Counted from the first letter of the stretch, positions 244 through 22,307 are shown. The stretch is DNA of 64,000 nucleotides from Xylographa opegraphella (GCA_022813865.1 JALDZX010000033.1:1-64000); one strand, 5' to 3'. Notes: a model not told the origin generated them from the letters alone. A program made the numbers and translations.

Positions 244-1890
244 TTATATCCATGTTCTCATTGACTGTCCACCTGGACCTCTTACCCGTGTAGTTTGACC
301 ACGATTTCTGCTGCCGCTTCGGCTTCGGCTTCGGCTACTTCTCCGTCTTTCTCCATCGCTCCTGCTCCGTCCTCCTGTAAGTTTTTCGCCAGTCTCACTA
401 CCCCCTTTGCCATGGCTTCTTAGCCACGATAGAGTGACAACCGCAATATATATCAAGAACACTACGCCAGCAATGACCCCATACGCTATTTCCCCTTTGA
501 CCGTGTTGCCTGATAACTGTAAACCCAAGCCACCATTGATGGCTCCAAGGATCAGAAGAGCTCGACCCCACCAAACATGAGCGTGCGCCCACAGGGTTTT
601 TCGCTGGGTTTTACGGTAAATGAAATGGTGTATAAGTCCGAGGAATGGTTGTAGAAACAAGCCGGAAATAACAGTGAGCCCGATGATCGGATGGGTGACG
701 TTCAACTAAGATAAGTAGATCAGCCTTTGCAACAGGAAGGAAAGTCAACCTCAAAGCTTGTGATATGTGTCGCCTAAAAGAATATGATTCACGTACCTCT
801 TGCTCCGTGACCGAAAGCCAGACTCCAATACCCATGCCCGCGATCGCGAATGCATATGCAAACAGCTGTAGTGAGGCGTGGATCCAAACTGTAGCTTTGA
901 CAGAAAGAAATCGGACAGTCAGTGCACCAAAGGGAAAGAAAATCCTGGAAGTATTAGCGGGTGCGGACAGAATGCAAGTGGAAGACATTACAAAAATGCA
1001 AGTGACATGATGATGCCGTGTGCCATCACTCTTATATGTTTAGTCTGTTTACTGCCATCATCACCATCGCCGCCATCACCAGAGCCACCGCTGAAACTCC
1101 CTCCATCTCCACCATCACCTCCGGACGAGCTGGACGGACTCCCGGTTGGGGAGCTTCCAGCAGAAGCAGTGGTGGTAACACCGTTGCTTGCGGCATTACT
1201 GACGAAAGGATTCAGAGAATTACCTCCAGCAGCTTTTGTCAAATCGAAGTTGAAGCTATTCATGGCGTCATGCTGTTGTAGATTTGCCGATGGAGAATTG
1301 GACGCGATGACCGACCCGCTTTTTACTGCCCAGATCCACGATGAAGAGGCATCCGAAAAACTCATGGAACCGCCGTTCCAAGACGCGCAGCTAGTGCCTG
1401 GGATAGAGCATCAGCAACTGCGTCTCCGATATTCGACAGGACTAAACCAGCGTGCTCTCACATCGTATGTTGGCCGTCATCACACCATTCGCGATTCCAG
1501 ACCCCTCCAATAAGGAGACTTGAGCTGCACTATTGAAGTCTGGTTGAAAGTTGCCGGCTCCGAGACGGGGAGACAAGGTGATGTTGTGTCCATCCGAGTT
1601 GCTATAGATGATGAACATGTTGGACCCTCTCATCTGGCCGCCCTGTCCAAGTCCGACCCATTGCATCGACGACGGTGCCTGTATCTGAATGAAAAAATCC
1701 CCACTTCCGCTGGAAGCACTGGCGGAAGGAACATTAACGCTGTAATGGACACCCGGTTGTGCGGTGTAGTTCTGCACTTGGGCACAGGCCAACCCTGCTA
1801 TTGAAATGTGAGCAAGCTGGATTCCACTGTGCCGTTTGTCCACAGCCTACCCAGTCCACATGCCAGACCTGCTGACAAGAAAAGCCTCAT
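244..1890 (-). CDS. DOMON (CDH-like cytochrome) domain plus cytochrome b561 transmembrane protein
   Basis: Spliced signal peptide MRLFLSAGLACGL|AGLACAQ (ATG at 1890). DOMON motifs WVGLGQGGQMRGSNMF, SPRLG, WIWA and QHD. A Gly/Ser/Asp linker follows, then b561-type His helices AHGIIMSLAF, WIHASLQ, HPIIG and HVWWGR. Several GT-AG introns. Confidence 0.85.
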
Positions 1891-3071
1891 TTTCAGAATT
1901 TACAGTCGGAGGAACGAAGACGAGGGATTCTCGAGTCGGTTCGATAAAGCAATGACGGCCAGGCAAGGTGAAGGGAATCCGTGAACCTTTTTGGGGAGTC
2001 CGCGTGGCCTTCGCTGAAGTGCGACGTTGGAGCTTTGGAAGGATAGGGGAAGGAAACGGCGACTCAAAAGCGGATGGAGATAAAGAAAGGACAGCTGGAA
2101 GTTGCGTCACAACTCGACCGCCGAACAGGGTGTTTCATTAGAGTGCAGGGCCAATGAAGCTGTCAAGCTCCGGCTCATTTGCCTTCTTGTTGACGTCTTG
2201 GCCGGACGCCCTCCAAGCCCCAGTCACCGAAGCTAAGGCCAAACCGTGCAGGACACCTTCTTTTGCGCTACAGTCGAGTCGCATCATCGAACGCCTTTTC
2301 ACCTGCTGTGGTGGGAATCAGAGCGTGGGAATCGGAGTGTGGCCATCTCACGTCGGGTGCGCACGAATCAGATGTGCAGGCAACTCCGACGGTATCGCAC
2401 ACATTCCCAGAATGCAACGATGTATCTGCAGCTTCGGCCACCGCCAGCACGACGAGGTCTCCGTCACTAGATAGAACTATCTAATGACGAAACAGCTGCG
2501 AATCATACGCCGGTGGTCAAACGTCCAGATTCGGTCGATATCAACGGCTGCCGGTAGTGCGAACTGGTGAGATCATGATGCGCCATTTGGCCCAGATCAG
2601 GAGCTGATCTTCCAGCTAATGTACAAAGCAGTAATCCCAGATCTTAGCGGCCGCAATCCTCGTTCAACCATCACAAGGTAAAGATACCTTAATCTACGCG
2701 TGTAAAACACTACTATCTCTGTGGTGTTGAATCACACCAAATCTACAGCTGCCAAGTGCGCTACAACTCGTAAATACTCCCCAGCGTCCAACCGGTCGGC
2801 TTGGAAGGTTCCAACGCGGCAATGATCCTCGCCAAGCTTAGGTAGGAAGTGCCTTTTCTCGGAGTGTGAGGTCACAGCTAATAAGTACTTCTAATTCGCC
2901 GACTGAATATTGTTCAAGCACATGTGGTGAATTGGGCGAGGGGGGGGCTCTGAGACTCGTACTTGAAGCTAGAGTACCTACTCCGCACCCAGCCCACAGC
3001 AGGTACCTTAGGTTACCCGTCCGTGCACTCTCCCCTCCACCTGATCCAAACAATGCACGACTCCCAAGTTT

Positions 3072-5148
3072 CTATGGCCCGTCATGCTTCTCCGTTTTCT
3101 CAAGGATGGTTCGGATCATCTCGTTGCCTACCCGTGTTGCTTCGGGGAAGCGCGGCGCGAAGTATGCTTGGACTTGTTCGAAGCGATCTTGGTACGAGGA
3201 AAAGTCCCCGAACGACACACAATCCGACCAGCCCTAATACTCAGATCCAGTATGGGTTAGCGGACACGAAGCATATATGAAACGTGCATCTAGGATAAGC
3301 AGATGGAACGGTTTCGAGTCCACAGGGCGGATGATATGCCTGTAACATAGAGTGTCGTGCATGCTACTGGAGAATTTGATTTGCAATGCAGGCAAATGCT
3401 AGAATGGAAGGCAGATGGCCACGTAGAGCGACCAACAAATTGAGAGAACAGCGAAGCAGCGCATACAACGCCGAAATGGACAGATACTCACACGTGCAGC
3501 GAACGTAAATTCCAAATCATCAGAGCGAAACGTGTCGTCCTCGATAGCTGTAGTAATGACTTCCTCAAGTAACAACGGTTTGCGGAAGAGATACTCCGTT
3601 ACGCCTAGCATAAGCCGGAACAACTGACAAAAGTGTAAGCGTCTGCTATCTAGCACTGTGTTGAACGTCCAGCCGGTCTGTAGTACGTGAATTGGGAAAA
3701 CCGCACTCACCGGCGTAGAGCAAATCATATGGTCATAGGGCACGATCCCCAGCTGCCACCAACAGTCGACCATGGCCAGCAAGCTGAGGTGATTGTTGGG
3801 TTGTTTCTGAGAAGGCACCTTGCCAAGAGAGAACCTGTCCAGCACTTCGTCTCGGAGCAGGAGCTCTTCGTGTTGTCTTTCGGCTTTGAACACCGCTGCC
3901 CCTGCCGTCTTGATGCGATGAGTGAGCTCCTCGCGGTGCCCTCCGAGCATGAGTTTGAACAATTCTGTTACCGACTGAGCATATTGTCGAATTTGCTGCT
4001 TCGCTGAAGGATTTAAAATCGCTAAACCGGCGTAGACGTGCCACTTGTTGGAATAAATGCGCAGCGTAACGTTGATCTTCACATTCTCAATACCACCGAC
4101 ATAACGATTGATCTCCCATGGAAATTGATTGTTTGCTTCCCATGCGGTTCCCATACTCAGAAAGGCGGCATGAGTGACTGCCTGTGTATCGGCGGTGATA
4201 CTATCGTGCTGCTCGGCAGTAAGATGGACATGCTTGGAACCGAAACACGATAGAATCTGCTCTACCAGATCCTGGCTTTTCTGTGAAGCGCGGTGCCGGA
4301 TGACGACGAGAGGTTGGCCACGAGGATCAACGTTCGGACCGTGTAGAGAATGACAAGAGACTATCTCAACATCTGACGGCAGATGCTTCTCGAAGGCAGC
4401 AATCTCGGGGGCCTTGCATGAGGTTTGACCTCCAACAATCGCACCTTGCTTCGTTGCTAACGTCGTCAGACCTGACCCATCTGAAGGTTGTAGGGCACTT
4501 ACAAGGTCCGTACTGGGCAACGACTTTATCAATGGCTTCGGCTTCTACGCTATAGATGATGTAGTCGCTCGATCTTGAGACCAGATGACCATTGGGATAT
4601 ATTGTTACATTGGCCTATCGAGCCTTAGCTACTTGCGTAATTACATATATTTGAACAGTGATACCAGCGGGGCGAACTGCTCCCTCAACGAGTCATACTT
4701 GTCAGGTCTATCACAGGCGTTGACTCTAATTGTCTCTCATGTCAACACGTCCTTTCGAGGGATTATAACTATACTGACACAGTCAGTTTCAACTTTCAAG
4801 ACTTTCATGCAGGAGGTTGGTCAGAGAAAGCGAGGTTCAGACAAGAAAAATTAAGGTAGCTGAGATTTTACATCAGTGACGACGTGCTCGCGCACCAAGA
4901 CTCCAAAATGGAGCAAGATGTGCGAACAGATCATGCTCGAGCCAAATGCACTCAAGTTCATCACAAACGGGTGAGACAGTATAGCAGCAAGGAAGTGCAG
5001 TACTTACAAATCTCCGCGGTCGGGTTTTTACTGTCCGGGTCGGATCAGATCAAGGGATGAATTACCTCCATCCAGCCTCACTGAGCCTTCTCGTATACAT
5101 CTTGCCCATATCCCCCATCCCAATGATCCCAACCGAGATGTGTTCCAT
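3072..5148 (-). CDS. TYR1: prephenate dehydrogenase (NADP+)
   Basis: Exon 1 MEHISVGIIGMGDMGKMY carries the Rossmann motif. Internal motifs VGGQTSCKAPEI, SCHSLHGP, HDSITADTQAVTH and RIYSNKWHVYAGLAILN. Last exon reads GWSDCVSFGDF...RFPEATRVGNEMI with stop at 3072-3074. The start codon is the least certain part. Confidence 0.93.
4833..4969 (-). ncRNA. snR13: intronic box C/D snoRNA, snR13 / U15 (SNORD15) family
   Basis: C box GTGATGA (4964-4958). Guide GCATTTGGCT, complementary to LSU rRNA AGCCAAAUGC, followed by an atypical D' (TCGA/CGAG). C'-like TGATGT. Second element GCTACCTTAA, complementary to rRNA UUAAGGUAGC. D box CTGA (4840-4837). This matches my recollection of yeast snR13 (UGAUGAA..UGAGUGCAUUUGGCUCGAG...GCUACCUU...UCUGA). 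Confidence 0.85.
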
Positions 5149-5298
5149 TTTCCACTCAGATGCGGCTCCGTGTGACAAGGACTTAACCTCCTGAAATCAA
5201 TGGTCGCGCTTCTACCTCAGGAAGGAGAACAGGTATTGCCGCAGCAGGTGTGGGTACATATCGAAGGAAAGGACCTTCATGAGTCGTCACCGTCTTGA

Positions 5299-5305
5299 TG
5301 AGTCA
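5299..5305. promoter_or_regulatory. Gcn4/CpcA-type element TGAGTCA upstream of TYR1
   Basis: Exact TGA(C/G)TCA match about 150 bp upstream of the TYR1 ATG. A second copy lies at 5748-5754 in the same divergent promoter. Confidence 0.4.
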
Positions 5306-5825
5306 GAGCACTAAGTAAGCTGAGTACTCCTGCGCAGCAGCAAGGTTAAAGAGCGGTGGTCGAAGAATGAAGCTGATGCAGCTGTGAATTTTCTGTGATC
5401 TCGGTTCGTGCCGCCATCAGTTTCTAGTCCCTGTCCGGCTTAGTGAGAGCGTTGTTGAAGGCTAATTCTAGCTTGGTTAGAGAAGGATTGACGACAATCG
5501 CCAAAGTCACGGAGTACGGGAGTAGTGCCCTCGGCCAGCCTCTTTGATTGTCTCCGCCTCCGCATGATACCATTCGCAACCAACCACACCCGCTGCTGAT
5601 CGATTCGCGGAGCCGTCACTGAACCCTTCGTGCGTATGGAATTCTGTACGATCTGCTGCAACCATTCCTCGTCGCTCGGAGCACCTATCTGGTGAAGCTT
5701 GTTGCTTATTCCTATCCAAAGGATTCCATAGCAACAATACCGCTGGGTGAGTCAATTGTCCTCGGTTGTTGCACATAAATGCCAGTTGAATTGGCTAACT
5801 CTTAAGCTCAGACAGCCCTGTACAC

Positions 5826-7301
5826 ATGGACGTGCTCTCTGAACAGCCACTTCCCAGAACTCCAACTCCAATCGCGAAGGTTATGGAACACATTGAGGGA
5901 CACATATCGAATGCGCCATACTATTCTCCACCTTCGAACCTTGCTGGAGACATGACACCACCGCCCTCGACACAGCCATTGAAAGCCATATACAAGACTT
6001 CATCTCATTTACTGCCAAAGGCTACAGAGAATACTTTCGCTTCGCCGCCGGCAACTTTCAAGTCCATGTCTCAATCGCATCAAGCCTCGAAATCTGGTAA
6101 TCTACCATCCTTAGACCAGATTCGCGACCTTCCAGAAGGGCAGCTCCGCGAGCTGGTATCTGAACTGCTCCCCGCTGTTAGTGAGGCTCGCATGGCTGCT
6201 GCGCATGCAAAGCTCCAACACAGCTTGTTGAGTATCGAGATTGCAGAACTCGCGCAAAGAGCAGCTGTAGAGCATGAGATCATGAGGCGGGAGCTAGAGG
6301 TACTGCAGGCGTCCAGTCCCATGCTTCAGAGTCGCACCGCTTTCACTACGAATACTCCTACCCAGGCTCAGATGCAAAGTGCCTTCGAAGCCGCTACCAA
6401 GCACAATCGCATCCTGGAGACGGACAATGCTTTGTTGAATCGCAGGCTGAAGCAAGCCAAGAGAGTAATCAAGCACCTCGATGCAAAGAACGTTCGGGTA
6501 GAGGAAGCGAACGAGTTCCTCAAACAGCGCATCAGGCAAAACCGCGAACACATTGATGCCATGCGCTTATCTGGAACGATCTCTCTTGACAATAACCCGC
6601 AATCCGCGTACGATGTCTCAGCACAACGGAACCAGTCCACCAATCCGGATGCAACTGCTCGCAATGGGAGTCAAGATCCATTCCATACATTGTTGTTCGC
6701 TGGTCAGGTCTTGAGTGGGGAAACCACCAGTGTTCCTTCAACGCCGACTCATCCTCGGGCAATGAAGACACTTCATGGTCATACACGCGGTGCACACTCG
6801 CTATCTTCTTTACCAATGACGCCGATTCGCTCAAGACCGATGACGGCAGATGAAACCATAAGCACACCATCAAATCAACTCGTCCCTTCCTACCACATCA
6901 GTGTTTCCGCCCCAAACACGCAGTTTGTCTCGTATGCCGATGCAAGCCGTCGTAGCGATCGCGACAGTACAATTTCAGCGTCAGACCAGGACGAGGCATA
7001 TACCGATGAAGATGTGCCAGCATCCCAAGCAAGTCAGGCAGCAACGAATATGCTTCTACAAAAACCAGGCACTTCTTCCGACAAGGTCTCGAGGCAGTCG
7101 GTCGCTGAAGATCGTGGTAGCAGCCAGAGTAAGATATCAGGGAAAATCTCCAAGCCAGGCTATGACGTGCTGAAATCTGGGAAGAAGCGTCCCGTTGTTA
7201 ACGAGCTAGTGGGCCAACCTAACAGTAAGAAGGCTAAGTTGCTAGCAACTGTCGAACAAACGGGATTAGGTATTGCAGTCTGGCCAAGTCCTGGCACTTG
7301 A
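5826..7301 (+). CDS. fungal hypothetical protein with central coiled coil and Ser/Pro/Thr-rich flanks
   Basis: Uninterrupted 491-aa ORF. Heptad-rich segment EARMAAAHAKLQHSLL...LKQRIRQNREH and basic NLS-like C-terminal patches. Confidence 0.8.
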   Translation: MDVLSEQPLPRTPTPIAKVMEHIEGHISNAPYYSPPSNLAGDMTPPPSTQPLKAIYKTSSHLLPKATENTFASPPATFKSMSQSHQASKSGNLPSLDQIRDLPEGQLRELVSELLPAVSEARMAAAHAKLQHSLLSIEIAELAQRAAVEHEIMRRELEVLQASSPMLQSRTAFTTNTPTQAQMQSAFEAATKHNRILETDNALLNRRLKQAKRVIKHLDAKNVRVEEANEFLKQRIRQNREHIDAMRLSGTISLDNNPQSAYDVSAQRNQSTNPDATARNGSQDPFHTLLFAGQVLSGETTSVPSTPTHPRAMKTLHGHTRGAHSLSSLPMTPIRSRPMTADETISTPSNQLVPSYHISVSAPNTQFVSYADASRRSDRDSTISASDQDEAYTDEDVPASQASQAATNMLLQKPGTSSDKVSRQSVAEDRGSSQSKISGKISKPGYDVLKSGKKRPVVNELVGQPNSKKAKLLATVEQTGLGIAVWPSPGT

Positions 7302-7713
7302 TCTTCAAATGTCTCGTTTTTTAATAGCCCAGTGGGTATACTGCAGCTTGCGAGAGCGTACACTGCTGTTGTGTCTCGTCCTGGATGGATTTTCGTGAGG
7401 TATTTGAGGTTCGAATCTCTTGAGTTAAGAGAAATACCTTTTCAAGGAGATGAGCTATGATTTGCTGATATTCACGGCATTTCTAGCCGGGGTTGATGTT
7501 TGCATGATGATGAACAGGTGATTTTGGAGAGATGTTGCTCCACAGTCTAGTGGCACGTCCATAGGATGGAGTATTCGTAGCATTTGCTTCTTGTACATAA
7601 TTGCTGGTTAAGCTGCACCAATTAGAGGCCACGAATGCCATACTTTGCAATTACTCCTGATTCCTAAGTATTAAAATATCGGAGATCCGAGCTACGCTTT
7701 AGATGGCCTAGCG

Positions 7714-7720
7714 TAGGGCT
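7714..7720. promoter_or_regulatory. possible ribosomal-protein promoter motif (TAGGGCT / AGCCCTA)
   Basis: Lies about 100 bp upstream of the RPL13 ATG. It resembles the GCCCTA/IFHL-type element I recall from filamentous-fungal RP promoters. The motif is short, so support is weak. Confidence 0.25.
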
Positions 7721-7817
7721 GCCTTCCGCACATTCCAGCTAAGCGAATCTCGCGATACAACATCGAGTAAGACAACTTTTCCGACCTTCAACTCCAACTT
7801 GATCGCCATTCGCCACC

Positions 7818-8774
7818 ATGGTAGGTTATTTCCTCTGCTTGGAAGTGCTCATAGCTTGTAATCAAGGAAGGCGATAGCCTAATGGTCGAGACATTGGCTG
7901 ACTCTCATGTCTACTACAGACGATCAAGCACAATCAGCAGATCCAGCACAATCGTGGGTCCTCAATGCTCCCGGCACCAAAAACCATACTTACGCACGAC
8001 AGATTTCCGGAAAGATTGGCAGCGTCGCGTGCGATGTCATTTCGACCAGGTATTCAACCTCTGCCACTGGAGTGCGCCCAAGGGCTCACTGAGGTTTCTT
8101 CACGAGCCACCATACTGACATTCGACATCATAGCCGGGTCGCAAACTTCGCCGTCGTACTGCCCGTCTCACTAAAGCTGCCGCGGTTGCCCCTAGACCAG
8201 TGGACAAGCTTCGGCCTGTTGTGCGATGCCCTTCAATTAAGTATAACCGACGTGTCCGGGCGGGGCGTGGTTTCTCTCTTGCCGAGCTAAAGGTACTAAT
8301 TAAATTATCAATATTCTTTATAGAGGGAACTACTAACTGGAGCTTCTCAATATGCAGGAAGCTGGTATCCCAAAGAAATATGCCCCAACCATAGGCATCT
8401 CCGTTGACCCTCGCCGTGCTAACCTTTCCACCGAATCCCTCGTCCTTAATGTTGAACGCCTAAAGGCCTACCAAGCACGTCTCATTATCTTCCCCCGCCG
8501 TGTTGGACAGCACAAGAAGACCGACTCGTCGAAGGAAGAGGTTAATGCTCATAAGGAAGAAGGCAAGGTTACGCGAAAGACTCACTCAGTCCTTCCTATC
8601 GTCAACGAGGCAAGGGAGAAGGCGATTGGAGAGATCAAGAAGAGCGAGATGGGTGAGGGTGAAAGTGCCGCATACCGAAAGCTTAGGGACGCTCGGAGTG
8701 AGGCGCGGTTGGTGGGTGTCAGAGAGAAGAGGGCTAAGGCCAAGGACGACGAAGCTACGGCTGCGAAGAAGTAG
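7818..8774 (+). CDS. RPL13: 60S ribosomal protein L13 (eL13)
   Basis: Spliced product [32 protein letters not shown]...[32 protein letters not shown]...[10 protein letters not shown]. Four introns. Confidence 0.97.
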
Positions 8775-9520
8775 AGATCTGATGTATTGTCATCACATGG
8801 CTTTATCCATTTGACGATGTTGCTTAGCGTAGTCCAATCAGGGCTATAACATCGACAAGAAGGCTTGAATCACGGAATTGAAAGGATCTGTTGTCCGTGT
8901 GCTGTCTTCAGTCTATTCAGGTGTATTCTGAATGTTCCAGTGAGCACAGCTCTACCTCAATCACCATTACTGCAGACATCGTTCAGGGGCCCAGACGACA
9001 TTTGGCTTAAATTTCTCGCCACCATTTTTGCTCCTCGGAGGCAACTGCCCTCGTATATCTGCGGCTATCATTAGGACCCTTTCTTCAAGCGTTCATGTCT
9101 CGATTCTAAAGTTTGCTGCAGCACCTACCGTACGGTCTACCATCGTCTGACGACCATTCGCCTAGCATTTTATTTTCAAAGCTGGGAAATCTGGATGAAG
9201 TCACGTGAACTTATGCATTCGAGCACACCGTAGTTTGGCATTTGTCATATTTTTGGTATGCACTGTTGTCAAAATCCATTCAGTATACATTCTGTTGTAC
9301 CTAGGTAAACCTATGCAGTTGCCCACGCGTATGAAAAACATCGAGGGGCAAATTAATGGTTCTCTTAGTGACACAACAGAGACTATTGGCATGACTTCGA
9401 GTGTGCCATTCGATCTACATATAGCAACATCTGCCATCAAAGTCAACCTCGACTTATGAGTTCTGGCTGCTTGCCATGCCCTTTGAACAGCTGGATGCTC
9501 GCGTCGATCTCTGTTTGCCG

Positions 9521-11767: not shown

Positions 11768-12651
11768 CTATCCTTTTTCCTTCTCCACATCTCCCTTGAC
11801 AGCCTGATCTTCCCTCTTCGGTCTTTCCCCAAATATGCCGGTCCCGACTCTGACCTCGTCGCTGCCCATCCGTACGGCGGTCTCGTAGTCTGCACTCATG
11901 CCCATACTTAGTTCCAAGGGATCCCCTCCTATCTTCTCCTGCACTTCGTCTCTCACCTCCCGTAATTTCACGAAGTCCCCATTCTCCCCGCCCTCTTGGC
12001 TTCTCGCTATTGCTCCAATGGTCATTAAACCGGCGAGCTTCAAGTGCGGCGTCTTCTCTCTGATGTGTCGGCACAGCTTCAGGGTTTCGTCACCTGGCTC
12101 AGCCCCACTCTTTGCCTCCTCCCCCGATGTGTTCACCTGCACGAACACCCTCAGGCCCCCATCCTTCTGCAGCTCTTTCCCCTCCTCCCGCTCGCATAAC
12201 TCCCGCCGGCCTTTCTCTAGTTGGTCGGCCTTCTTGGTCGTGTCCACACTCTCGACGCACCAGAGATTCGGGATTTCAGCTAATGGGCGGCATTTGTTGG
12301 TTTGGAGGGCGCCAATGAAGTGCCAGCGTATGCTGGAAGGAAGCACAGAGGCTTTGTGCTGCAGTTCTTGCAAGTAATTCTCTCCGAAGTGGAAGTGCGG
12401 ATCCGGTGCGGTATGTAGGGCAAGGACGTCGGACGAGGGTTTGAGCTTGGAGACGGCAATCAGGCGAACCTGGTGGTTGACAGAGGTCAATTAGATTGTG
12501 ATAGGCCATTTCGGGAGGGATTGGAATAATATACTTCGCGGGGTGTCTTATTCGCTGCTTTTATTGAGCGAGTGACTAGGGAGATATTATCAATTAACTG
12601 TTTCGCTCGTTGTGGGTTGATATGCATTTCGTCTTCGAGGGTAGACGCCAT
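11768..12651 (-). CDS. pyridoxal phosphate homeostasis protein (YggS/PROSC family)
   Basis: Motifs VRLIAVSKLKP, FGENYLQEL, WHFIGALQTNK, VQVNTSGEEAKSG, GLMTIG, LSMGMSADY and VRVGTGIFG. One intron; exon 1 begins MASTLEDEMHINPQRA. Confidence 0.95.
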
Positions 12652-13219
12652 TGGGGCATGTACGTGATTTAGGGTTAGGCTAGATAGTCAGATAGTATGG
12701 ACATCGAGCCCATGGTTCAAGCAGCATGCATGATCAAGCAAGGTGTAACGTCATTACTGAAATTCACCGGCAAATCTCATGAAGCGGTAAGAATCACTAT
12801 CGGGTTTCAAAATTGGCTTACATGAAGCTCAAGCACGAACTAAGATTAAGGTCTTCAAGTTTTCCGGTCTTAGAGACTTTTCAGTCCGAGACGAGCCCGA
12901 GGGCCAGTCTGGAGTCTATTAGAGGTAAAGCTTTGGGATCAACTTACAAAGGGATCAGCTTAATACGTTGTCAGAGTGACTGAACTTGCGATCCTGATTA
13001 CGTTGTGAGCATAGATCTAGAGAAAATAGTTGTGAAATTTCTAGTATTATGGTCCCATTCCTTGTACATGAAAGGTTTCCCACAGTGTCTCGTACCATAT
13101 GCCTGCACACTGGCAAGCTTCATTTTCTTTCATTTCTGCTTGCTCTCTTCACATTAGACTCTGGCCTTACCGCCTCCTTCGGTTTCCCTATCGCCGCTGG
13201 TCTTTCATTGTCGAATTCC

Positions 13220-16200
13220 TCAGTCTTCATCCACAGGCTCTTCAGCTTTGTCCGTTGACTCGTCCCAATCGTCATCCTCATCAGGAAACTCGTCATCTCT
13301 ATCAGGCCTTGTGACCGGCGATCTTGGTATCCTTAACCCGGCGGCGGCTCCGTCTCGTCCGCCCCGTTGCATGGAACTCCCTTTGGATAGATGATCCCGT
13401 GGATTACCGGCACGTTCCTGAGCACGCCTCGAGAGATCGTTTTCATTGAGGCCACCCCAAACGACCTGCAAATATTTGTCAAAGTCCTTGGAGGCTTTGG
13501 CGACCAGCTCGAAATGGGACGCTTTCAGGTGTGGTTTCTCTTCTACATTGTACTTTTCCTTGATTTTGAATGCATCGTATTCGGCTAGGGCCACCGCAGT
13601 CTGGAAAGCATTCCGAATCTGCCGGCCATTCCAAACGACCTTTTCCTCCTCTAACTCTGCGAAATGGGCCAGAGCGAACTTGAAAATCTCCTTTTTGTCG
13701 ACAATGATGTCCTTTTTATTTTTCATCACATTTTTGATATGCCAAGTCCAGATTTCCCGGGTAGCATCGCGGTCGAGAGATGGATAGTAAAGGCTCATGT
13801 GAATTCGTGATTTGAATGCGGGATCAAGCGTGCCAATTCGGTTGGTGGTAAGGAATAAAATTCCAGAATAGTACTCGAGAACTCGTAAAAACACACTGAC
13901 GATACTGTTCCGCTGTAAATCAGTCTTGTTACGGCGCTGGAGGAAAACGTCCGCCTCATCTAAGAGTAGAACACAGCCCCACTTGTGGGCCAATTGAAAG
14001 GTTGACCTCAGCTTTGTGTCAACGTCATCGGCTGTCTCGCCAATATCACCTATTCTATACGTAAGCAGGCTTTACTCATACTGGTGCAGAATCGCATCCG
14101 CCAGCATTGGATAACTAAGCTCGGTGTCTGAGAAATAAGGAGGAGATTGGCCGGACATACTACAAGTGATAGGAAATAGAGGTCGGTGCGTGTGTGCAGC
14201 AATACTCTCCGCAGTCGAAGTTTTGCCGACACCAGGAGCACCATGTAGCAAGACGATCAAGCCTTTCCCCTTTCCGGGAATCAGGTCAAACTGTGTCTGG
14301 CCTTCGGGTTCCTTTTCATTTGATGTGGTACCCCGTGAATGATTTCTGACCATTGCCAGCAAGGTGTCCTTATGGCCATTGGGCAGACACAATGCATCAA
14401 GTCCAGCTCCAGAGTCGAGTGGTTGCACCTCGGCCACTTTGTCGATATCTAATAGGGCCCAATTACGATCACGTAGAACGAATCCAATCACCCTGACTGG
14501 AAAGAGCATGAAGTCTATTTGTTGGTTAATTGGCGTGGCCCAAAATACCATTGAAGTACATACCTTCATCGGTCAGGTTGTCCGCATTCATGAATCGGAC
14601 CAGAATTTCCTCCTGTTCGGAAATTAGATCCAGAGCATGACCAGTATCGAGTTCATTGTCGTGATGAATGAAGTCGTTATCACAACAACCAGGAAGGGTA
14701 CAAGGATCTCGACGGGGGTATCGAGGATCAAACCAGGCAGATTCCTCTCGGGTCTCACGTGAATCCGGATCAATTGGTTTCTTAACGCCCAGTGGTATAC
14801 TCCATTGTTCTCTGTTCTGCTGCAAACCCAAGTTGAAATCAATAATGACCTCGGAGTCGATCTGCAGGAGCGGAAAGATCATTAGTCTAGTATATATGCA
14901 GCTTCACGAAGAATATTGATAACGTACCTCGTCGCCAGTACCAATACATCGTCCTTTATACTGCATGTGCATTACTTTGGAAAGCTTGACGAAACGTTTT
15001 CCACGTTCAATGAGTTCTTGTTTTGTTGGTATTGGTTTACCGGCTATTGAGGGTACCCGTCCATTCACATCTCGGAACCTGTGGGGAAACACCGTCAGGC
15101 TAGTGATTAGCACTTCTCCTTCATACCATGGAATTGAGAAAATCTGTTGGGACGGCCCGTAGTCGAAGCCATCATAGTCGAAGGAGAAACATTGCACGAC
15201 AAAATCACTCCCTTTCTTCGTAGGAGTTAAATATTGGACTTCATTGTCGTCATAATATGGATCACTTGGTCGAGGAGGTGCACCATATCGATCTCGGTCC
15301 CTCGATCTTTCTCTTCTCCTGACTACTATATCATCGTCTAGTCCCGAGTTTAAGTACCGCCGACCTCCAGTGAAATGTAGAATACGATATACCTGAGCCC
15401 CAAATTGGTTTGTGCATACCTCGTCGCCGTGGCAAAATAGTAGCCAAAGGTCAACAAAAGCGATGGTCTTCAGAGTCCCCTCCTTGACCTGGCGCCGCAG
15501 TTCGAAGAGGCCTTTGAGGTCAAAATCTAAAAGTTCAATCAGAAGCTGAAGATGAGCCAACGCTTCCTTTGACATAGTGACGTCTTCCCCTGCCGTAACG
15601 GGGGTCTTTTCTCCTTCGATATTGATGAATGGGGTAGGCCCCGGACTTGCATTGTTCGATTTCCACTTCGCTTCTAAGTCTTTGGTGTATGCCCTGATCT
15701 TGATTTCAAACTCTACAAATAGTTTGAACGGACGAAGGAAAACCACTGGAGGTGGTATATCAAGACCTTCGGATGAGCGAATCGGTGGATGTGCCGACAC
15801 TCTTCGTCTTCTCCGAACCTCTCTTTCTGGCTTATAGGCAGCAAACTTCCGTCCGATATCTTCTCAAGTGTCTTTAGAAGAGGAATGGAGCGTATCCGTA
15901 CTCGGTCTGGGACTCTGGCTAGCAGATCCGGCTCGTTCGCCGAGCTCCATTGATTATCTGGTGGTTCTGCTAACGCGACCGACGGGTGGCGGCTCCTGGC
16001 TCGCCGCGTATTGCTCGACCCTGTAGGCACGCCAGTACAGACTTCGATTGCATGCAAAGGGGTAAGAGGAAGATCTGCAACGGGATGTTTACTACTGACG
16101 CTTGAGTTTTGATCATCGAACGCTGTTGGCTGTGGTGGTCTGAAGGTCGCCAGCGGCATCCGTACAATTTCAGAAACTAGTTTGTGTGGGTCTACCACAG

Positions 16201-16864
16201 CGGCGTCAGAAAAAGAAGAATGGCGTGTTCTCATATAAATTGGGGAGAACGGTCGAAACATCTCTTCAACCTCCTCTGCCTCATTTTCAAGTCCTTTTTG
16301 AGAATTTTGCTGTCCCTGCAGCTTAGCCATGGCTGTCTCCAAAGATGCCAGGGGGTCTTCAACAAGCCTGATGTACGACTGGTGCTGCAAAACTCTCTTA
16401 TTCGCATTTCTGAGCCGCTGCTTCAATGGTGGAAGATTTCTCACGGCCCGCCGACTAGCATCCCTATTATGTCGCTCGATGTCGCTCATAATGTCGAGGG
16501 AATCTTCATCACTACTGATATCGCGATCTCTGGTGTCCCCCGTTTCGTGAATCTCCTCTCTATCGGTATTGTTCATGCTCAAGGGGCAACTTCCATGACT
16601 CCCTTCCCCGGAATCGCTTTCTCTGTCTCGGAGAACTCCCTCTGTCATTGCAATCGCAGGTTGTTGATTGCCGTAGTCCCCATCAGGATTGCCGGCATCT
16701 GGAGATGTATGGCTTTCGTTAACACGTGAGGGTAGATCAACCGTTTCCTCTACCCTCTGACCGAGAACAGGTCTAGGATCATCGTCGGAAGCTCCACGGT
16801 TCATGGTTGAGAGTTGAGAAGAATACCCAGAGGTCGGGAGCTGGTTAATAGTAGCGGTAGCCAT
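13220..16864 (-). CDS. large fungal AAA+ ATPase (long N-terminal extension, DUF7025-like region, C-terminal AAA domain); apparent frameshift, possibly a pseudogene
   Basis: Walker A GKGKGLIVLLHGAPGVGKTSTAE, Walker B VLLLDEADVFL, and motifs RNSIVSVFLRVLEYYSGILFLTTNR, AFKSRIH and WNGRQIRNAFQTA. Three clear introns. The frame changes between RVRIRSIPLLKTLEKI and VVFLRPFKLFV (15745-15863). Confidence 0.85.
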
Positions 16865-17543
16865 CTTGCTGCAGAGGCAGTATGCCGCTGAAAAACAAGT
16901 ATATGCACGAATGCATTTGACATAAAAGAAATCCTGTGCTGCCGGTAGTCTAAGAACGCCAGTCCTCACTACAAAAGATGACCGAATTCCAATGCGGTAA
17001 AGTCAAGTCCTTCAGGACGTGAAAGGGGGAGGACAAGGAATCATTCCAAACATTTGACTCCGCGGCCCTCACTGCGCCCAACTTAGTGAATCTTATAGTT
17101 CCCAGTCTAACTAGTGATCTGCAGCTCAGCCATTTCCGTGCAAATCGGTTAATGTTTGTGGTTGGGGTGCGAAGGGGAGCCAATGAGAGCTTTCGCCCGG
17201 AACCGACCTTGACCGAAATGCTAACTATCTTAAGATAAGACGGTTGTGACCCTTGTCATCAGCCTCATCACCTCCAACGTGGGTACTCCCGTAAGAAGGC
17301 GAGGAAGGTGACAATTGGACAGTAACTTAGGTAGACTTTCCCGACGGAGTAACGTACACTCGAATGAGCAATCAATGATGCGGAGCATCCTGTCGTTTGT
17401 CCGACCGAGCGCTTTCGCAATTCGTAGGATCTATCCAAACCTAAGTGTGCTTTCCCATATCACACAAACCACCAACCCTTTTCGAGAATCGCAAGAAATG
17501 TTTCCCTGAGCTCTCTCTGCCATGGTCGTGGATATCGGGGACC

Positions 17544-19768
17544 ATGGCAGTCTCTCCACCAACCACTGCGAGCGCCCAACAATCGTTAAATGTTCCTGCC
17601 GACTTTGTGCAAAATCGTCTGGACGCAAGTTACCACCCAGCCTTTGCAGACCATAACGCTCATTTCATTATGGATCTTGGCCGTTTTGGCGGAAACGACG
17701 ACGAAAAGGCTTTGGCAGAGCTGAAGCTGTGGGAAGGGGCTGACGTGGAAAAGGAACAGCTCTATCAAGCGATAGAGAAGTACGAGCGCAAATGTAAACC
17801 GAAGCATCAGACCTGTAGAACAATCGCGGAGATTCGAACTGCTCAACATACATGGGGTGACATTCTTGGAGAGGCTGACAGGGCCGCGAAGCAGCACGAA
17901 GATAAGGGGATTGTGATCAAGTACATGAGAAAACTACGTGATTGTGCCCCTTCTTTCGAAGATTGGACAACCTTATTACCACAGGGAGATTATTCTGGCG
18001 TCGTGAGGCAAGTCGAATCGAGGAGGCTTAGTGTAGGTGATCACTGACCATTGTAGCCTGGGCTTTATCATGGTCTTAAAGGTGAGTCGTGCAGCTTTGT
18101 CCCCATCTTGGCACCAATTATCCTAAGGTTATTGAAGGCTGCCGCGAGGATGAGCGAGGTTCATTCGATATTATATGAAGTCATGGGCAGCATTCCGGAG
18201 TATATAAGTAATGCTGAGCGCTACAAGAGTATATACAAATCGACACGGAATGTCAAGCTGGTGAAGAAAACAGCATTGCTTTATTCGTCAATTGTTGTCG
18301 CACTGGTGGAGGTGTTTGCGTACCTGGGAGAACGCTCCGTTGGTATTATTCTGTGAATGATAAACTTCCGCAGTACGCTCATTTACGTCTTTTCAGTGTC
18401 ACCAGTCAAAGCATTTCTCCTCGGTCAAAAATACCAGAAAAGGTTGGAGGAGAAGCTGAAGGCTGTCCTAGCCGCTACAGAGGCAGTGAAAAGCGAAGCA
18501 ACCATTTGCCTTCACGAAGTGAATGCGGAAGGATTGGTGAGAACAATTGCTAATGAAGACCAACGTAAATAATGCCCGACACTATGCATCCTCGCGGCTG
18601 ATATGAACCAACAGGACGTCAGGACTACGCAGAAGCACAAGCACAAAATAGACAAGCGGACCAGATGCTATACCAAAAACTCGAGAGTGTCGACGAGAAA
18701 ATCAACTACTTGAGCAATGCCTTGGACGCTGCTTACAGACAGCTTCGCAGTAGTCAGTTTCTGAATCCATTGACTAACATGCCACAAAGTCAGGGGTATG
18801 TCCAAGGGGACAACATCTCTCGATCCACAAGTCCAATGGCTGCTGCTAAACGCGCAGGTATGGAGATCGCCCGAGCTATTTGTCTTTGGTAGCTAACAAT
18901 TGGCACAGCTTTGTCACCAAAACAAATTCTTAAGAGTCTCGACTTTCGTAGAGGCGACGCCCATAACGATTTGATTGATCGACTACAACTTGGCTATTCC
19001 ATGCCACTGAGCCAGCAAGGAAGAGCCGTCGACTTGATCCGCTCTGACAACCTGAAGGACTGGTTGAAAATAATGGCTTCGGACGTTCTATTAGTCCACG
19101 GTGGTAGTGCGGATGAGGACACGGAGGAGCCTCTGTCCTTTGTTTCTGCTAAGATAATCACCACACTCCAGGATCTTGACCCCGTCATCACCATTCACTA
19201 CTTCTGTGGCTTGCACCGAGATCAAAGATCTAAAATTGGGACCGGAGGGGATGCCCAAACCATGATGAGCAGCCTGCTTGGTCAGCTTTTGATACAAGAC
19301 AAATACGAATTTGCCTTGGATTTCGTTACGTCGCATGATCTCACTATGCTTAAAATTGACGATCTGAAAACTCTTTGTGTCATAGTCGGATCACTCATCA
19401 AGCAACTGCCTCCGGCTTCCGCTCTCTTCTGCGTTCTCGACGGCATTTTCGCTTTCGAGGATTCTACTCGAAGCGACGATTTGATCAAGGCGCTGCGATA
19501 CCTTGTACGTCTAAGCCACAAATCAAAAGACGTATCCTTCAAACTGCTTTTAACGTGCGCTGGAGACTGCCAGTTCTGGCGGCAGTATGAAATCACCGAA
19601 GGGCAGGCTCTACTTATGGACGAGGAGCTCGTTAACGACGAGGGTCATGGATACAATGACGAGCTATTCAATGACGATTTGGCGCCCGCTTTGGTCGAGC
19701 ACGACAATGACTACGACGAATCACAAGATCCAAAAATCATACTGGACGAATATCCGGAAGACTTTTGA
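17544..19768 (+). CDS. NACHT/STAND-like protein with helical N-terminal domain and degenerate P-loop
   Basis: Six exons join in frame, including a GC-AG intron at 18008-18056. NACHT-like order of motifs: LKDWL..SDVLLVHG (no GKT/S), ITIHYFC, MMSSLLGQLL, Walker B-like LFCVLDGIFAFE, FKLLLT. Acidic tail and no C-terminal repeats. Confidence 0.7.
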
Positions 19769-20414: not shown

Positions 20415-21797
20415 CTACACACCTACCACCATACCCCCTTGTAGCAACACCAACACGAGAAATAGAAATTTCCATACCTCATTCGCCACTTTCAGTCTCG
20501 ACCCAAAATTAGCAGTCGTCGCTCCAGCTGGGTTGTATCCCTCTAATCCGGAAGTGGCGGAAGCAGTGGTAGAAGATGTAGGACATGGCACATCTTTCTC
20601 GAGGTCGCTGTTGAAGCACAGAGCTGACTCGGTTACCGAGGAAATCGGGTTGACAATGAGACCTGGTGCAGTAGAGGTCGAAGTAATACCAGGGACGTAG
20701 CCAGTGGTTGACGTGGTTGATGCCACAGTAAACGACGAATTCGAGATTCCGGTTGAAGTCGCGATTGACGGCGGAGCTGAAGGCAACATAACCACCGCCC
20801 AACTCGTTATAGCAGCAACACCTGGCTCAGATGTCTCGTTTGCGGACAGACTGGGCATTGCGTAGTTGAGATAACCAGACTTCACCGGAATAAGCGTCAA
20901 GGTTTCATATTTCACAGATGTAGTTGTTATTGTCATGTGAGTGGTGCTGGACTTTGTACTCAAAACATCACTTGTGGTAGGCCCGAGTGTAACAGAATCG
21001 AGAAAAGAACTTGAAGCATAGCAAGCTCGACCCCCAGCGGAAAAGGCTCCACATACGGGGAGACTAGAAGGGCAGCATTGCGGAGGCGAACCGGACTGCG
21101 CCATACAACTAGAACTGTGAGTGTCCAAGCATGATGGTGAGCCCGAGCAAGTAGTATGCAAAGGGCAGCAGCCTGGGCTTGCGTTTAACGTCAGGACGCA
21201 AGACGTGGACTAAAGAGGCGGATCAGTCACCGATCACTGATGGAATTGAGACAAGGAGATGCGCGAAGGGCAATTGGCAGTAGTAGCGAATCAGTGTCAG
21301 TTTACAGAAAGTACTGACCGATGGACAACAAGCACCACCACAACACGTCTCGTTGGCTTCGCAGTACGTATTGCCACAGCAAGTTGAATTTCCGGATATA
21401 CAGTATGGCGCGACATTGGTCGAGACTGGCATGCAGCAAGAATCTTTTTCGTTGTTACGAGTCAGTGTTGTCCTGCCAAACAAGAAAAGCTGTCGCTGTT
21501 ATGGACTGGATTACAGTCATCACTGATGAAGGACTTACCGGATGGATCAAAACATTCACAGATCATGTCACGAGCGCCGAAATCGAACTTACTCCGGGGA
21601 ACAACCCACGCGTAATCGGCCGTAACGTTGCGAACATAAGGAGCCAGGGTTTCATTGTAGATGATAGAAGTGTTTGAGAAAGGCCCAGAGCTAGAATTCA
21701 TCCTCGGAGTGCTCCGATGGGCGTGAGCGAGATTCGCAAGGACAAAGATAATAATAAACATTAAGTTGAGCATGTTGACATCAGAGGTCTTGAGCAT
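20415..21797 (-). CDS. secreted Cys-rich, Ser/Thr-rich, probably GPI-anchored cell-surface protein
   Basis: Signal-like MFIIIFVLANLAHA. After removing two introns (the first is 21444-21538) there is a domain with repeated CC pairs (SCCMP, TCCGN, TCCGGACCPS, GCCP, QCCP). A Ser/Thr stalk and hydrophobic C-terminus FLFLVLVLLQGGMVVGV follow. Confidence 0.75.
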
Positions 21798-22307
21798 GAC
21801 AACAAAAGCTCGCTGTGAATGTCGTTGGGACCAAGCTGATGTGCAACAAATTTGGATAATATGGGACTTGGTGAAAGTGACACTGCTGAAGAAGAGACGA
21901 GAGCGACTGACTGATAGAGCAAGCAGTTAAAGAAAGACAAAAGTGGTTGTGAATCTCAATTGAGAACTTGGAGAAGTTTTTTTGATTTCGTATAGCCGGG
22001 AGAGAAATAGTTTCCGTGTGGATGATGGTCCGTTGATAACACAAAGCGAGTTATAAGATGGTTTAGATTATAGCTTGACAGTGTCAATAGCACAATATTT
22101 CGATAACACATCTTTGTTACACGGTTGATCTCATGTCGGACATCAATACCAATCTCGTCAAATCATCCTCGATGCCCTCCCCACATCTAACTTCAATTTC
22201 AGCTACTTTCTTCTCATCGGGCCTATTAATACTGTTCTTTCTGGTGTTCATTGACTATGAAACCTCGATTTATCCTCCACTAGTCGGATAAGGTAACGCA
22301 TCACAGG

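Follow-up and report, generated by a model that had tools for sequence, protein, structure and literature searches.

A head-to-head pair of genes for a AAA ATPase and a P-loop-less NACHT-like protein in Xylographa opegraphella

Fungal NLRs, as set out in the available parts of two reports (Dyrka 2014, PMC4986451; Wojciechowski 2022, PMC9815663), combine a Goodbye-like/DUF7708 N-terminal domain with an NPHP3_N-type NACHT domain and ANK, WD40 or TPR repeats. A gene of the lichen fungus Xylographa opegraphella, here called gene 2, encodes a protein with the same N-domain family and fold, and its distribution is likewise limited to Ascomycota; unlike these NLRs, it lacks the Walker A motif, the Walker B acidic pair, the winged-helix/helical arm and the repeats. 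In other words, of the tripartite NLR layout an N-terminal effector-type domain is found by way of relatives (the link to Goodbye being weak), and C-terminal repeats are absent. The P-loop variants described in the available portion of Dyrka 2014 (PMC4986451) are changes of a single residue, not replacements of the whole loop.

Beside gene 2, in the opposite orientation, lies a gene for a AAA ATPase (gene 1), and several described systems invite comparison with such a pair. In bacterial CBASS TRIP13/Pch2-HORMA and in IetA-IetS, a classic AAA ATPase is encoded beside a non-enzymatic adaptor that it would remodel, an arrangement to which the present one may be analogous. Gene 1 differs from TRIP13/Pch2 and IetA in having a DUF7025 N-region and in lacking an aromatic pore loop, and unlike the HORMA or IetS partners, the gene-2 product is neither a HORMA protein nor a protease; the PADLOC models that the AAA domain of gene 1 matches (IetA, E=1.2e-14; TRIP13, E=6.4e-11) are matched through the generic AAA core only. 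Some members of paired plant NLRs have degenerate P-loops. Sensor and helper NLRs of plants, in the accessible part of one account (PMC12258605), are likewise encoded head-to-head and divergently over a short spacer, with one partner unable to switch alone; unlike in those pairs, gene 2 is accompanied by a AAA ATPase of the classic clade instead of a second NLR, and neither protein has a sensor domain. The fungal het-S/nwd2, HELLP/PNT1 and gasdermin/protease clusters, going by the available text of a review of cell-death clusters (PMC12881547), also link an NLR-related gene tightly to a partner, and share with gene 2 a helical N-domain related to HeLo/MLKL-type domains; unlike them, the pair described here has no amyloid motif, protease or gasdermin. 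The term "AAA" appears 0 times in that same portion of the review (PMC12881547), and no prior description of a DUF7025-AAA gene paired with a P-loop-less NACHT-like gene was found in the literature searched. DUF7708-NACHT NLR-like systems are known; a P-loop-less protein paired with a AAA ATPase gene is a new form among them.

The locus and its P-loop-less NACHT-like product

The stretch of X. opegraphella DNA analysed, 64 kb in length and referred to as the window, had been described in a first-pass annotation as holding two divergently transcribed P-loop-fold genes about 680 bp apart between unrelated genes, and this description holds (Table 1). Because an ATG stands at 16864 but the orthologues of gene 1 begin at the Met at 16804, the gap from start to start is 679 or 739 bp. 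Rfam, tRNA and repeat searches of this spacer returned no features. The neighbours are unrelated and of housekeeping type, Ala_racemase_N at 11771-12490 in the window annotation and, farther out, ribosomal L13e, a DEAH helicase and others; the rest of the window is also of housekeeping type, without further NLR or HET genes.

Table 1. Positions of the features of the gene pair in the window
Feature	Position	Strand	Description or basis
Gene 1 (MMC26_004912)	13220..16864	-	DUF7025-AAA-AAA_lid_13 ATPase; ORFs, splice model, Pfam, orthologue tblastn
Frame disruption 2, gene 1	13123..13222	-	premature TGA at 13222-13220; tblastn (assembly sequence)
Walker B, gene 1, VLLLDEADVF (LLLDEAD core)	13943..13972	-	motif located in spliced product
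Pore-loop-1 position, gene 1, ITC-intron-SDIGETADD	14024..14170	-	phmmer alignment to 5vc7_A
Walker A, gene 1, GAPGVGKTS	14216..14242	-	motif located in spliced product
Frame disruption 1, gene 1	15846..15901	-	1-nt deletion within GACGG-AAG (15846-15850)
Divergent intergenic region, common to both genes	16865..17543		679 bp; 739 bp with gene 1 start at 16804
Gene 2 (MMC26_004913, P0001, 654 aa)	17544..19768	+	six exons
DUF7708/Goodbye-like helical N-domain	17985..18515	+	P0001 residues ~148-271; DUF7708 at aligned place in orthologue P0175
P-loop-less NACHT (NPHP3_N-type) nucleotide-binding-fold core	19043..19558	+	Pfam, AF2, fold matches
LLVHGGSADEDTEE, strand beta-1 and loop in place of Walker A	19088..19129	+	alignment, AF2 model
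Walker B remnant LFCVLDGIFAFED	19424..19462	+	Asp kept, D/E pair at +3/+4 lost, family-conserved Glu at +6
Acidic C-terminal tail, low confidence	19601..19765	+	AF2 secondary structure, pLDDT

Gene 2 is intact, with an open reading frame and correct splicing: its exons (17544-18007, 18057-18081, 18138-18342, 18397-18564, 18615-18857 and 18909-19768, intron 1 being GC-AG) give exactly the public protein P0001. The claims made earlier for this protein, namely a NACHT-like scaffold with Walker A replaced, a helical N-terminal domain and no sensor repeats, are all borne out. The motifs HYFCGLH, SLLGQLL, LFCVLDG and FKLLLT were located; after strand beta-1, the expected GxxxxGK[ST] is missing and the site reads HGGSADEDTEEP. 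The Walker B pattern hhhhD[GAS]hDE gives way to LFCVLDGIFAF, and the sensor-1 Arg after strand beta-4 (TSR-like) is absent from LLLTCAGDC. P0001 itself falls below the DUF7708 threshold, and the N-domain is recognized through P0175, a full-length orthologue with 43% identity and DUF7708 at the aligned place; a Pfam search of P0001 returned no ANK, WD40 or TPR repeats and no further domains. The NPHP3_N match lies in the last exon (E=1.9e-5); taken alone, this exon scores 25.3 bits, the cut-off being 24.8, and the complete protein scores 21.5 bits.

What fold does such a protein adopt? In the AF2 model (pLDDT 89.2, pTM 0.87), VIA-align found ORC4 (7tjf_D, Z 12.7, rmsd 3.9, 180 aligned), Avs3 (8dgc_A, Z 12.6, 3.6, 195), ZAR1 (6j5t_G, Z 12.0, 3.5, 165), CED-4 (Z 10.6) and Apaf-1 (Z 10.2), and the top Foldseek matches were ORC/Cdc6, plus MalT. 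As modelled, the gene-2 product is thus an AAA+/STAND-type alpha/beta P-loop NTPase core without a P-loop, in agreement with the structural similarity that had been proposed. There is no helical/winged-helix arm in the model; the ~70 residues that follow strand beta-4 form a short strand and a single helix and then run out in a disordered, acidic tail, where the protein ends.

The family of gene 2 is a large one within Pezizomycotina, with 1304 cluster representatives at E<=1e-3 and 475 at E<=1e-10. Its members carry a helical N-domain of DUF7708 (Goodbye-like) type and a linker that is also helical; of an NPHP3_N-type NACHT they have just the alpha/beta core, and they have neither winged-helix arm nor repeat sensor. 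A canonical GxxxxGK[ST] stands at the Walker A site in 0/149 aligned relatives; 2/150 carry the motif somewhere, but elsewhere in the protein, and family-wide [NH]G[NG]-x7-SP-x-S stands in place of the loop. The acidic pair of Walker B has been lost in 150/153 (an acidic residue at +3/+4 remains in only three of the 153), and the sensor-1 Arg, present within five residues in 53/153, is usually absent. Judged from these alignments, Walker A loss is a defining trait of a large family and not a peculiarity of the X. opegraphella locus. Other residues are near-invariant (C99 in 145/152, H102 in 139/151, Q125 in 148/152, the Walker B Asp D177 in 147/151, E183 in 140/151 and K211 in 138/144), a pattern that is, at the sequence level, one of purifying selection and not of decay. 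Among 48 long relatives, DUF7708 was found in 28 and NPHP3_N in 37, and any other Pfam family, repeat families included, in none (E<=1e-3); in another count DUF7708 was present in 31/39 family members and Goodbye, weakly, in 3/39 (best E=0.012). Atlas look-alikes of the N-domain are Goodbye clusters (score 0.90).

Outside the family, the nearest look-alikes are canonical DUF7708 + NPHP3_N + NACHT clusters (Atlas ranks 17 and 19). Their existence, together with the strong conservation of the N-domain and fold strands in the P-loop-less family, favours a reading in which gene 2 serves canonical DUF7708-NACHT NLRs as a decoy, regulator or helper: having no switch or sensor of its own, it would join or block NLR oligomers via the N-domain or nucleotide-binding fold that it shares with them, with the AAA neighbour uninvolved. 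The tested fungal NLRs PLP-1 and NWD2 require their P-loop, according to the available part of PMC12881547, and therefore a P-loop-less relative would be unlikely to signal alone. However, this reading leaves the recurrent AAA neighbour unexplained, and no canonical NLR is present in the 64-kb window or in the Cenococcum-type contig considered below; we regard it as unlikely.

The AAA ATPase gene and its frame disruptions

Gene 1 probably starts at the Met at 16804, in frame with the upstream ATG and identified by tblastn, and has canonical GT-AG introns at 14927-14862, 14563-14515 and 14160-14050 (minus strand). Its Pfam domains are, in this order, DUF7025 (E=2e-18), AAA and AAA_lid_13 (E=3.9e-21); it matches VAT (E=1.9e-15) and Cdc48. 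The ATPase motifs (GAPGVGKTS, LLLDEAD, TTNR and KSRIH) are almost invariant in the family alignment and comprise the classic-clade features: Walker A, Walker B DExx, sensor-1 Asn and the Arg finger of the second region of homology. By these motifs, the product of gene 1 is predicted to be an ATPase of the classic clade (VAT/Cdc48-like), with one AAA domain and a DUF7025 N-region. The aromatic pore loop 1 (K-[YWF]-x-G) is absent; in the phmmer alignment to 5vc7_A, the VAT residues KWVGE lie opposite GETAD, one residue being deleted. The lack of this aromatic residue, which threading unfoldases and remodellers have, counts against the joint action of the two proteins discussed below.

The statement that gene 1 has intact AAA motifs stands for the motifs, Walker A and Walker B being present, but not for the gene itself, which in tblastn comparisons with its orthologues appears to carry two frame disruptions (~15846-15850 and ~13222), four orthologues supporting the first and two the second. 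At the first, where orthologues read ...LEKIS(D/E)GKF... (P0004 compared with P0005, P0009, P0010 and P0013), the tblastn frame passes from -1 to -3 at 15842-15848. The public gene model masks this disruption by excising 15846-15901 as a 56-nt GT..AG "intron", through which VRIRSIPLLKTLEKISDG is lost, including a family-invariant Leu; the surrounding region, 15400-16300, is identical in an independent contig of run X1 at a depth of ~167. Past the second, a C-terminal tail of 33 aa, conserved among the orthologues, can still be read in another frame at 13221-13123 (tblastn frame -2; P0005 73% over 33 aa, P0009 67%). Since gene 1 is frameshifted twice and gene 2 is intact, the pair is not obligate and gene 2 is not strictly dependent on this neighbour.

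The two disruptions could also suggest that the whole locus is a decaying relic, in which gene 2 is a dead, truncated, P-loop-less NLR remnant beside a dying ATPase gene. Lineage-unique substitutions in gene 1, 78 in X. opegraphella against 45 in X. pallens (chi2 8.85), point the same way; however, gene 2 shows a similar ratio (29 against 19), so that the excess may be a lineage effect. The open frame and correct splicing of gene 2, and motifs and near-invariant residues common to hundreds of diverged relatives, also speak against a relic, which we consider very improbable.

Recurrence of the pairing and what the proteins may do

Within Xylographa, the locus tags of the pair follow one another directly in X. 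pallens (008240/008241) and almost directly in X. trunciseda (002089/002091); at 71-88% identity, this is genus-level synteny and uninformative. Of greater weight is a contig of Cenococcum geophilum type (Dothideomycetes; L002), where the head-to-head pair recurs with a gene-2 copy from a paralogous branch of that family. Its AAA gene (6339..2842, minus strand, E=3e-119) has the same three Pfam domains as gene 1, its gene-2 homologue starts at 8711 on the plus strand, 2371 bp separate the two starts, and the proteins cluster at >=90% identity with C. geophilum OCK93376/OCK93378 and XTI87774/XTI87773. RIP-like sequence flanks this pair on both sides, and the pair with its spacer is a non-RIP island. 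In a third context, contig L003, the 10 kb to each side of the gene-2 homologue contain neither a AAA gene nor a remnant of one; contig L001 was too short to be counted. The proposed recurrence of adjacency and orientation is therefore seen in L002 and not in L003, that is, in 1/2 informative independent contexts outside Xylographa. That there are only two such contexts, one without the AAA gene, weighs against the joint reading given below.

Among the other features that the first-pass annotation proposed to examine, the AAA tree does not follow the gene-2 tree, and no third partner is common to the window and L002, in which the flanks of the window have no counterpart. In a tree of 159 gene-2 domains, the Xylographa and L002 copies fall in opposite halves. 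The clade on the Cenococcum side (support 0.87-0.98) also contains a sequence that clusters with Lignoscripta atroalba, a fungus placed in one family with Xylographa, which makes the Xylographa and L002 copies out-paralogues. In the AAA tree of 11 sequences, the Cenococcum-type AAA does not come out as the sister of the gene-1 orthologues, so that the pair is not shown to have been duplicated together. No fusion of the two families occurs among the 21 gene-1 and 48 gene-2 matches examined.

Might the two genes then be neighbours that function independently? Pezizomycotina commonly have both families; on this view, the Xylographa adjacency would be ordinary synteny within the genus, and the Cenococcum pair would have arisen by chance or be an old neighbourhood retained neutrally. 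The missing AAA gene in L003, the broken gene 1 beside an intact gene 2, the housekeeping character of the window without other NLR or HET genes, and the discordant AAA tree all agree with independence. Yet both families turn up again head-to-head in a different class, there with a gene-2 copy of a paralogous branch; no flanking genes are common to the two loci; and, by a rough estimate from a few dozen copies among ~10^4 genes, the chance that any one locus has a neighbour of this kind lies well below 1%. We hold independence to be possible, if somewhat doubtful; the gene pair is real and probably non-random, and its presence in a distant fungus hints that the two families work together.

We favour, with a probability of roughly 0.45, a joint reading in which the gene-2 scaffold and the AAA ATPase form a conserved but dispensable unit, the ATPase acting in trans. 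The gene-2 protein, descended from DUF7708-NACHT NLRs, would be incapable of acting as a nucleotide switch and would serve as a nucleotide-independent scaffold or adaptor; the two genes would be transcribed as a two-gene unit from a common divergent promoter, and the ATPase would provide the ATP-dependent step that the P-loop-less domain lost, by which the scaffold would be assembled, released or reset. Of this unit, the ATPase half would be in decay in X. opegraphella. The immune or allorecognition role and the remodelling of one protein by the other that the first-pass annotation put forward are, for this unit, conjectural.

A bolder form of this joint reading, which we think improbable, is a "split NLR": old Pezizomycotina DUF7708-NACHT receptors would have given up P-loop, lid and sensor, and this P-loop-less lineage would have handed the nucleotide step to a dedicated, divergently transcribed DUF7025-AAA partner, the pair then being duplicated and retained as a unit across classes. 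If true, the split NLR would be a two-gene cell-death or immune switch lost stepwise by species, with X. opegraphella caught losing the ATPase half.

The P-loop-less NACHT family

The second gene of the pair, MMC26_004913, lies beside MMC26_004912 in Xylographa opegraphella, a lichen-forming Lecanoromycete by taxonomy look-up (both product names come from protein searches). Its 285-aa last exon matches Pfam NPHP3_N just over threshold, and an exhaustive HMMER search for its family returned 1304 cluster representatives at E<=1e-3, of which 475 pass E<=1e-10 and 9 pass E<=1e-30. Named members belong to the Lecanoromycetes, Dothideomycetes, Eurotiomycetes, Leotiomycetes and Pezizomycetes. The homologous-protein search is insensitive for this family, giving 3 and 8 matches and overlooking the 43%-identical Loxospora orthologue P0175, so absence from its lists is no evidence of missing orthologues.

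What has become of the nucleotide-binding site? In an alignment of the best 150 relatives plus three named ones, 149 sequences cover the Walker A site, and GxxxxGK[ST] occurs there in none of them. A GK[ST] tripeptide lies near the site in three relatives (P0157 reads GxxxxxGKT, one residue too long), and two relatives carry GxxxxGK[ST] somewhere, but at an unrelated position. The Walker B D/E pair is missing in 150 of 153 relatives; a sensor-1-like Arg is found in 53 of the 153, with none in gene 2 of the window. The family consensus is W-L-x-S-xx-S-xx-LL-[VI]-[NH]-G-N-x7-S-P-L-S-F...FFCGxH...SLxxQLL...FC[IV]IDG[IV]SxYE...FKLLxT, in which Cys99, His102, Gln125, Asp177, Glu183 and Lys211 are near-invariant (285-aa exon-6 numbering; window about 19205-19545). 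These residues sit at C-terminal strand ends, i.e. the place where nucleotide would have bound, and might together bind a new ligand or a metal; more narrowly, Cys99, His102, Asp177 and Glu183 could make up a metal or catalytic site newly arisen in the former nucleotide pocket. Cys99 may, however, just be a carry-over from the NPHP3_N consensus.

The AF2 model of the core, computed from a 56-sequence alignment (pLDDT 89.2, pTM 0.87), runs strand, short loop, helix, strand, helices, strand, helix, strand, and the chain stops soon after strand 4. VIA-align Z scores were 12.7 for ORC4, 12.6 for Avs3, 12.0 for ZAR1, 10.6 for CED-4, 10.2 for Apaf-1 and 9.6 for MalT, and Foldseek ranked ORC/Cdc6 first; no PDB sequence matched the profile of alignment A1 under E=0.4. 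As modelled, the domain is an AAA+/STAND-type nucleotide-binding fold stripped of P-loop, catalytic acids, lid/winged helix and repeats. The first-pass annotation had described the second protein as having a P-loop/STAND-type fold without Walker A and as lacking sensor repeats, and both descriptions hold up: the model matches ORC4, Avs3 and ZAR1, the Walker A motif is absent from its site in the aligned relatives, and the 48 relatives of at least 430 aa contain DUF7708 (28) and NPHP3_N (37) and no further Pfam family, repeat families included, at E<=1e-3. The gene-2 protein P0001 does not itself score high enough for DUF7708; P0175, to which it aligns over the full length at 43% identity, carries this domain at the equivalent position. 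Goodbye matches are weak (3 of 39 family members, best E=0.012), and the look-alikes of P0001 residues 95-300 in Atlas are Goodbye clusters at a score of 0.90, which we take as a lead only.

In the literature, single-residue non-canonical P-loops are described for fungal NLRs (Dyrka 2014, PMC4986451), Goodbye-like domains have a four-helix core in common with HeLo/MLKL domains and a function that is still open (Wojciechowski 2022, PMC9815663), Sordariales have clustered NLRs as well as 13 NLR pairs in head-to-head arrangement (PMC12258605), and PLP-1 and NWD2, the fungal NLRs tested so far, depend on their P-loops (2025 review PMC12881547). That review gives a list of the two-gene clusters known so far, and "AAA" does not occur in it. 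Our full-text literature search found no paper on DUF7025, DUF7708, PF22942, PF23232, PF24809, "AAA lid 13" or the locus tags. Unlike PLP-1 and NWD2, the gene-2 family is NLR-derived but has no P-loop, catalytic acids, lid or sensor. The loss of all four in a large, strongly conserved family implies that it operates by a principle other than that of the P-loop-dependent NLRs.

The ATPase gene and its reading frame

The partner gene, MMC26_004912, has DUF7025 (E=2e-18), AAA and AAA_lid_13 (E=3.9e-21) in Pfam, and the nearest solved structures to its AAA core are VAT, Cdc48 and p97 (E=1.9e-15). It has Walker A and Walker B motifs, the sensor-1 Asn and an Arg finger, all of which hardly vary across its family; there is no aromatic pore loop 1, GETAD being aligned to KWVGE of VAT. 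The gene matches the PADLOC models IetA and TRIP13 through the generic AAA core only. An N-terminal coiled-coil-like motif, KR.LQ...Y..L.EDR.ASLE (residues about 125-165 of the orthologue P0005; about 6006-5880, minus strand, in metagenome contig L002), is common to both gene-2-adjoining AAA proteins, that of Xylographa and that of the Cenococcum-type contig, and to some others (P0020, P0023). It does not occur in the Aspergillus members of alignment A5, and it may mark an AAA subfamily.

The "intact AAA motifs" claimed for this gene are indeed there as motifs; the gene itself, however, has two frame disruptions. Orthologues in X. pallens, X. trunciseda, Circinaria calcarea and Lambiella insularis read ...RIRSxxLLKTLEKI(S/T)(D/E)GKF... 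uninterrupted; in the window, tblastn passes from frame -1 to frame -3 at 15842-15848, where one nucleotide of GACGG-AAG is deleted. An "intron" covers this point in the public model (see table), and the annotated 1100-aa protein is probably a gene-caller artefact. An independent contig from the sole run with the locus, at a depth of about 167, shows no difference from the window over 15400-16300; the assembly was probably made from this run. The match rules out an assembly slip at the first break, which may nonetheless reflect strain variation. The second disruption is read from the assembly sequence only. The remaining long ORFs of the window have no interruptions, so the assembly is not generally indel-prone. 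In relative-rate tests, gene 1 has 78 lineage-unique changes in X. opegraphella versus 45 (chi2 8.85, significant) and gene 2 has 29 versus 19; because the gene-2 ratio is similar, the rate excess of gene 1 is ambiguous and no demonstration of relaxed constraint. A public gene model that conceals a frameshift with an invented intron is relevant to counts of intact genes in lichen genomes.

Recurrence of the pair

Does the pair occur elsewhere? Locus tags are adjacent in X. pallens (008240/008241) and near-adjacent in X. trunciseda (002089/002091), which at 71-88% identity is plain synteny, and the match lists of the two genes have common contigs in the three Xylographa species only. A metagenome scan with the 4-sequence alignment A3 gave three loci, L001, L002 and L003; genome contigs searched with A3 and with A5, and viral contigs searched with A3, yielded no relatives. 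L001 (2.7 kb) is too short to inform on pairing. L003 (20.6 kb), whose gene-2 homologue is enclosed on both sides by AT-rich, strongly RIP-like sequence, has neither an AAA gene nor a remnant of one by tblastn at E<=1. In L002 (12.1 kb) a DUF7025-AAA-AAA_lid_13 gene and a gene-2 homologue start 2371 bp apart with no convincing ORF between them. By exact look-up, the L002 proteins share 90% clusters with OCK93376.1/OCK93378.1 of Cenococcum geophilum, a Dothideomycete by taxonomy look-up, and the same clusters contain the consecutive XTI87774.1/XTI87773.1 of a second Cenococcum geophilum assembly. By tblastx, none of the genes that flank the pair in the window matches L002, whose own flanks are short (2.8 and 1.2 kb). 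The recurrent head-to-head adjacency that the first-pass annotation had put forward as a check was thus found in one of two informative loci, the Cenococcum-type L002, but not in L003.

The flanks with RIP-like indices (TpA/ApT 1.4-1.7) are 1-8800 and 10800-20627 in L003 and 1-2800 and 10950-12113 in L002. The gene-2 homologues of both contigs are themselves not RIP-like, and the L002 pair with its spacer forms one non-RIP island.

In a FastTree of 159 gene-2 domain sequences (rows with <170 aligned residues left out), a Xylographa-Loxospora clade (10 leaves, support 0.99) and a Cenococcum-Penicillium-L003 clade (8 leaves, 0.95) occupy opposite halves. A sequence that shares a cluster with Lignoscripta atroalba, a member of the same family as Xylographa, falls on the Cenococcum side (support 0.87-0.98). 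Together, these placements indicate that the gene-2 copies paired in Xylographa and in the Cenococcum-type contig are out-paralogues. The AAA tree (11 sequences) is poorly resolved; in it the AAA of the Cenococcum-type contig does not group with the gene-1 orthologues, and it therefore gives no support to a joint duplication of the two genes.

Since the window pair was chosen for being a pair, the tests are L002 and L003 alone, and the outcome is one in two. We estimate that a few dozen DUF7025-AAA copies among about 10^4 genes would by chance place a head-to-head neighbour at well under 1% of loci; one positive trial of two, from a different class and a different paralogue lineage, thus speaks for a link between the gene-2 family and a DUF7025-AAA gene that is not random. 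That link is dispensable, because L003 has no AAA gene and the window has a broken ATPase gene beside an intact gene 2. The same two observations speak for a plausible, somewhat less favoured reading in which gene 1 and gene 2 are independent neighbours; the recurrence of the pair in L002 speaks against it. We give a probability of about 0.45 to a functional two-gene unit, in which the AAA ATPase would act on the P-loop-less gene-2 scaffold and supply an energy-dependent step in trans. If so, the pair would represent a new architecture for NLR-like signalling and a concrete two-gene system open to experiment. Compatible with either reading, gene 2 is possibly a decoy or helper of canonical DUF7708-NACHT NLRs.

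Gene models and neighbouring genes

Coordinates of gene-model features in the window and of the paired genes in metagenome contig L002
Feature	Position	Strand	Description
Gene 2 exons	17544-18007, 18057-18081, 18138-18342, 18397-18564, 18615-18857, 18909-19768	+	six exons; exact match to public 654-aa P0001
Gene 2 intron 1	18008-18056	+	GC-AG type (GCAAGT...TAG), 49 nt; followed by 25-nt mini-exon
Gene 1 introns	14927-14862, 14563-14515, 14160-14050	-	canonical
Gene 1 public-model "intron"	15846-15901	-	56 nt, GT..AAG (AAG acceptor); spans 1-nt deletion; removes 19 conserved residues, including a family-invariant Leu
Gene 1 frame disruption 2	about 13222, tail to 13123	-	creates stop; conserved 33-residue tail of orthologues readable in another frame
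L002 AAA gene	6339..2842	-	1166 aa, DUF7025-AAA-AAA_lid_13; 31% identity to P0004 (public gene-1 protein) over 1053 columns, E=3e-119
L002 gene-2 homologue	starts 8711	+	P-loop-less

Gene-1 orthologues start at the Met at 16804, and an in-frame ATG lies 20 codons further upstream at 16864 (tblastn), so the start-to-start gap is 679-739 bp; the close head-to-head spacing claimed earlier (16864 / 17544) is confirmed within that range. The neighbours are unrelated, as had been proposed: the remainder of the 64-kb window is of housekeeping type (ribosomal L13e, an Ala_racemase_N protein, DEAH helicase, ABC1 kinase, haem lyase, Yip1, UBC, an Omp85 protein and others), with no further NLR, HET or AAA genes. 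No repeats, tandem repeats, tRNAs or Rfam matches were found around the pair. The X. pallens gene-2 model P0002 seems to be without the 25-nt mini-exon (...DYSGAAAARM...), and this skipping is probably an annotation error there.

Downstream of gene 2, a 264-aa Ser/Thr-rich ORF and Cys-rich ORFs (e.g. ...CCGNTYCEANETCCGGACCP...) at 20418-21926 on the minus strand, all without a Pfam match, may belong to a secreted or cell-wall protein gene. A 782-aa ORF at 42467-44812, also on the minus strand, combines UFD1 N-subdomains, DUF7590, XAF1/TRAFD1-type zinc fingers and an AZUL domain, a UFD1-like architecture of unusual look.
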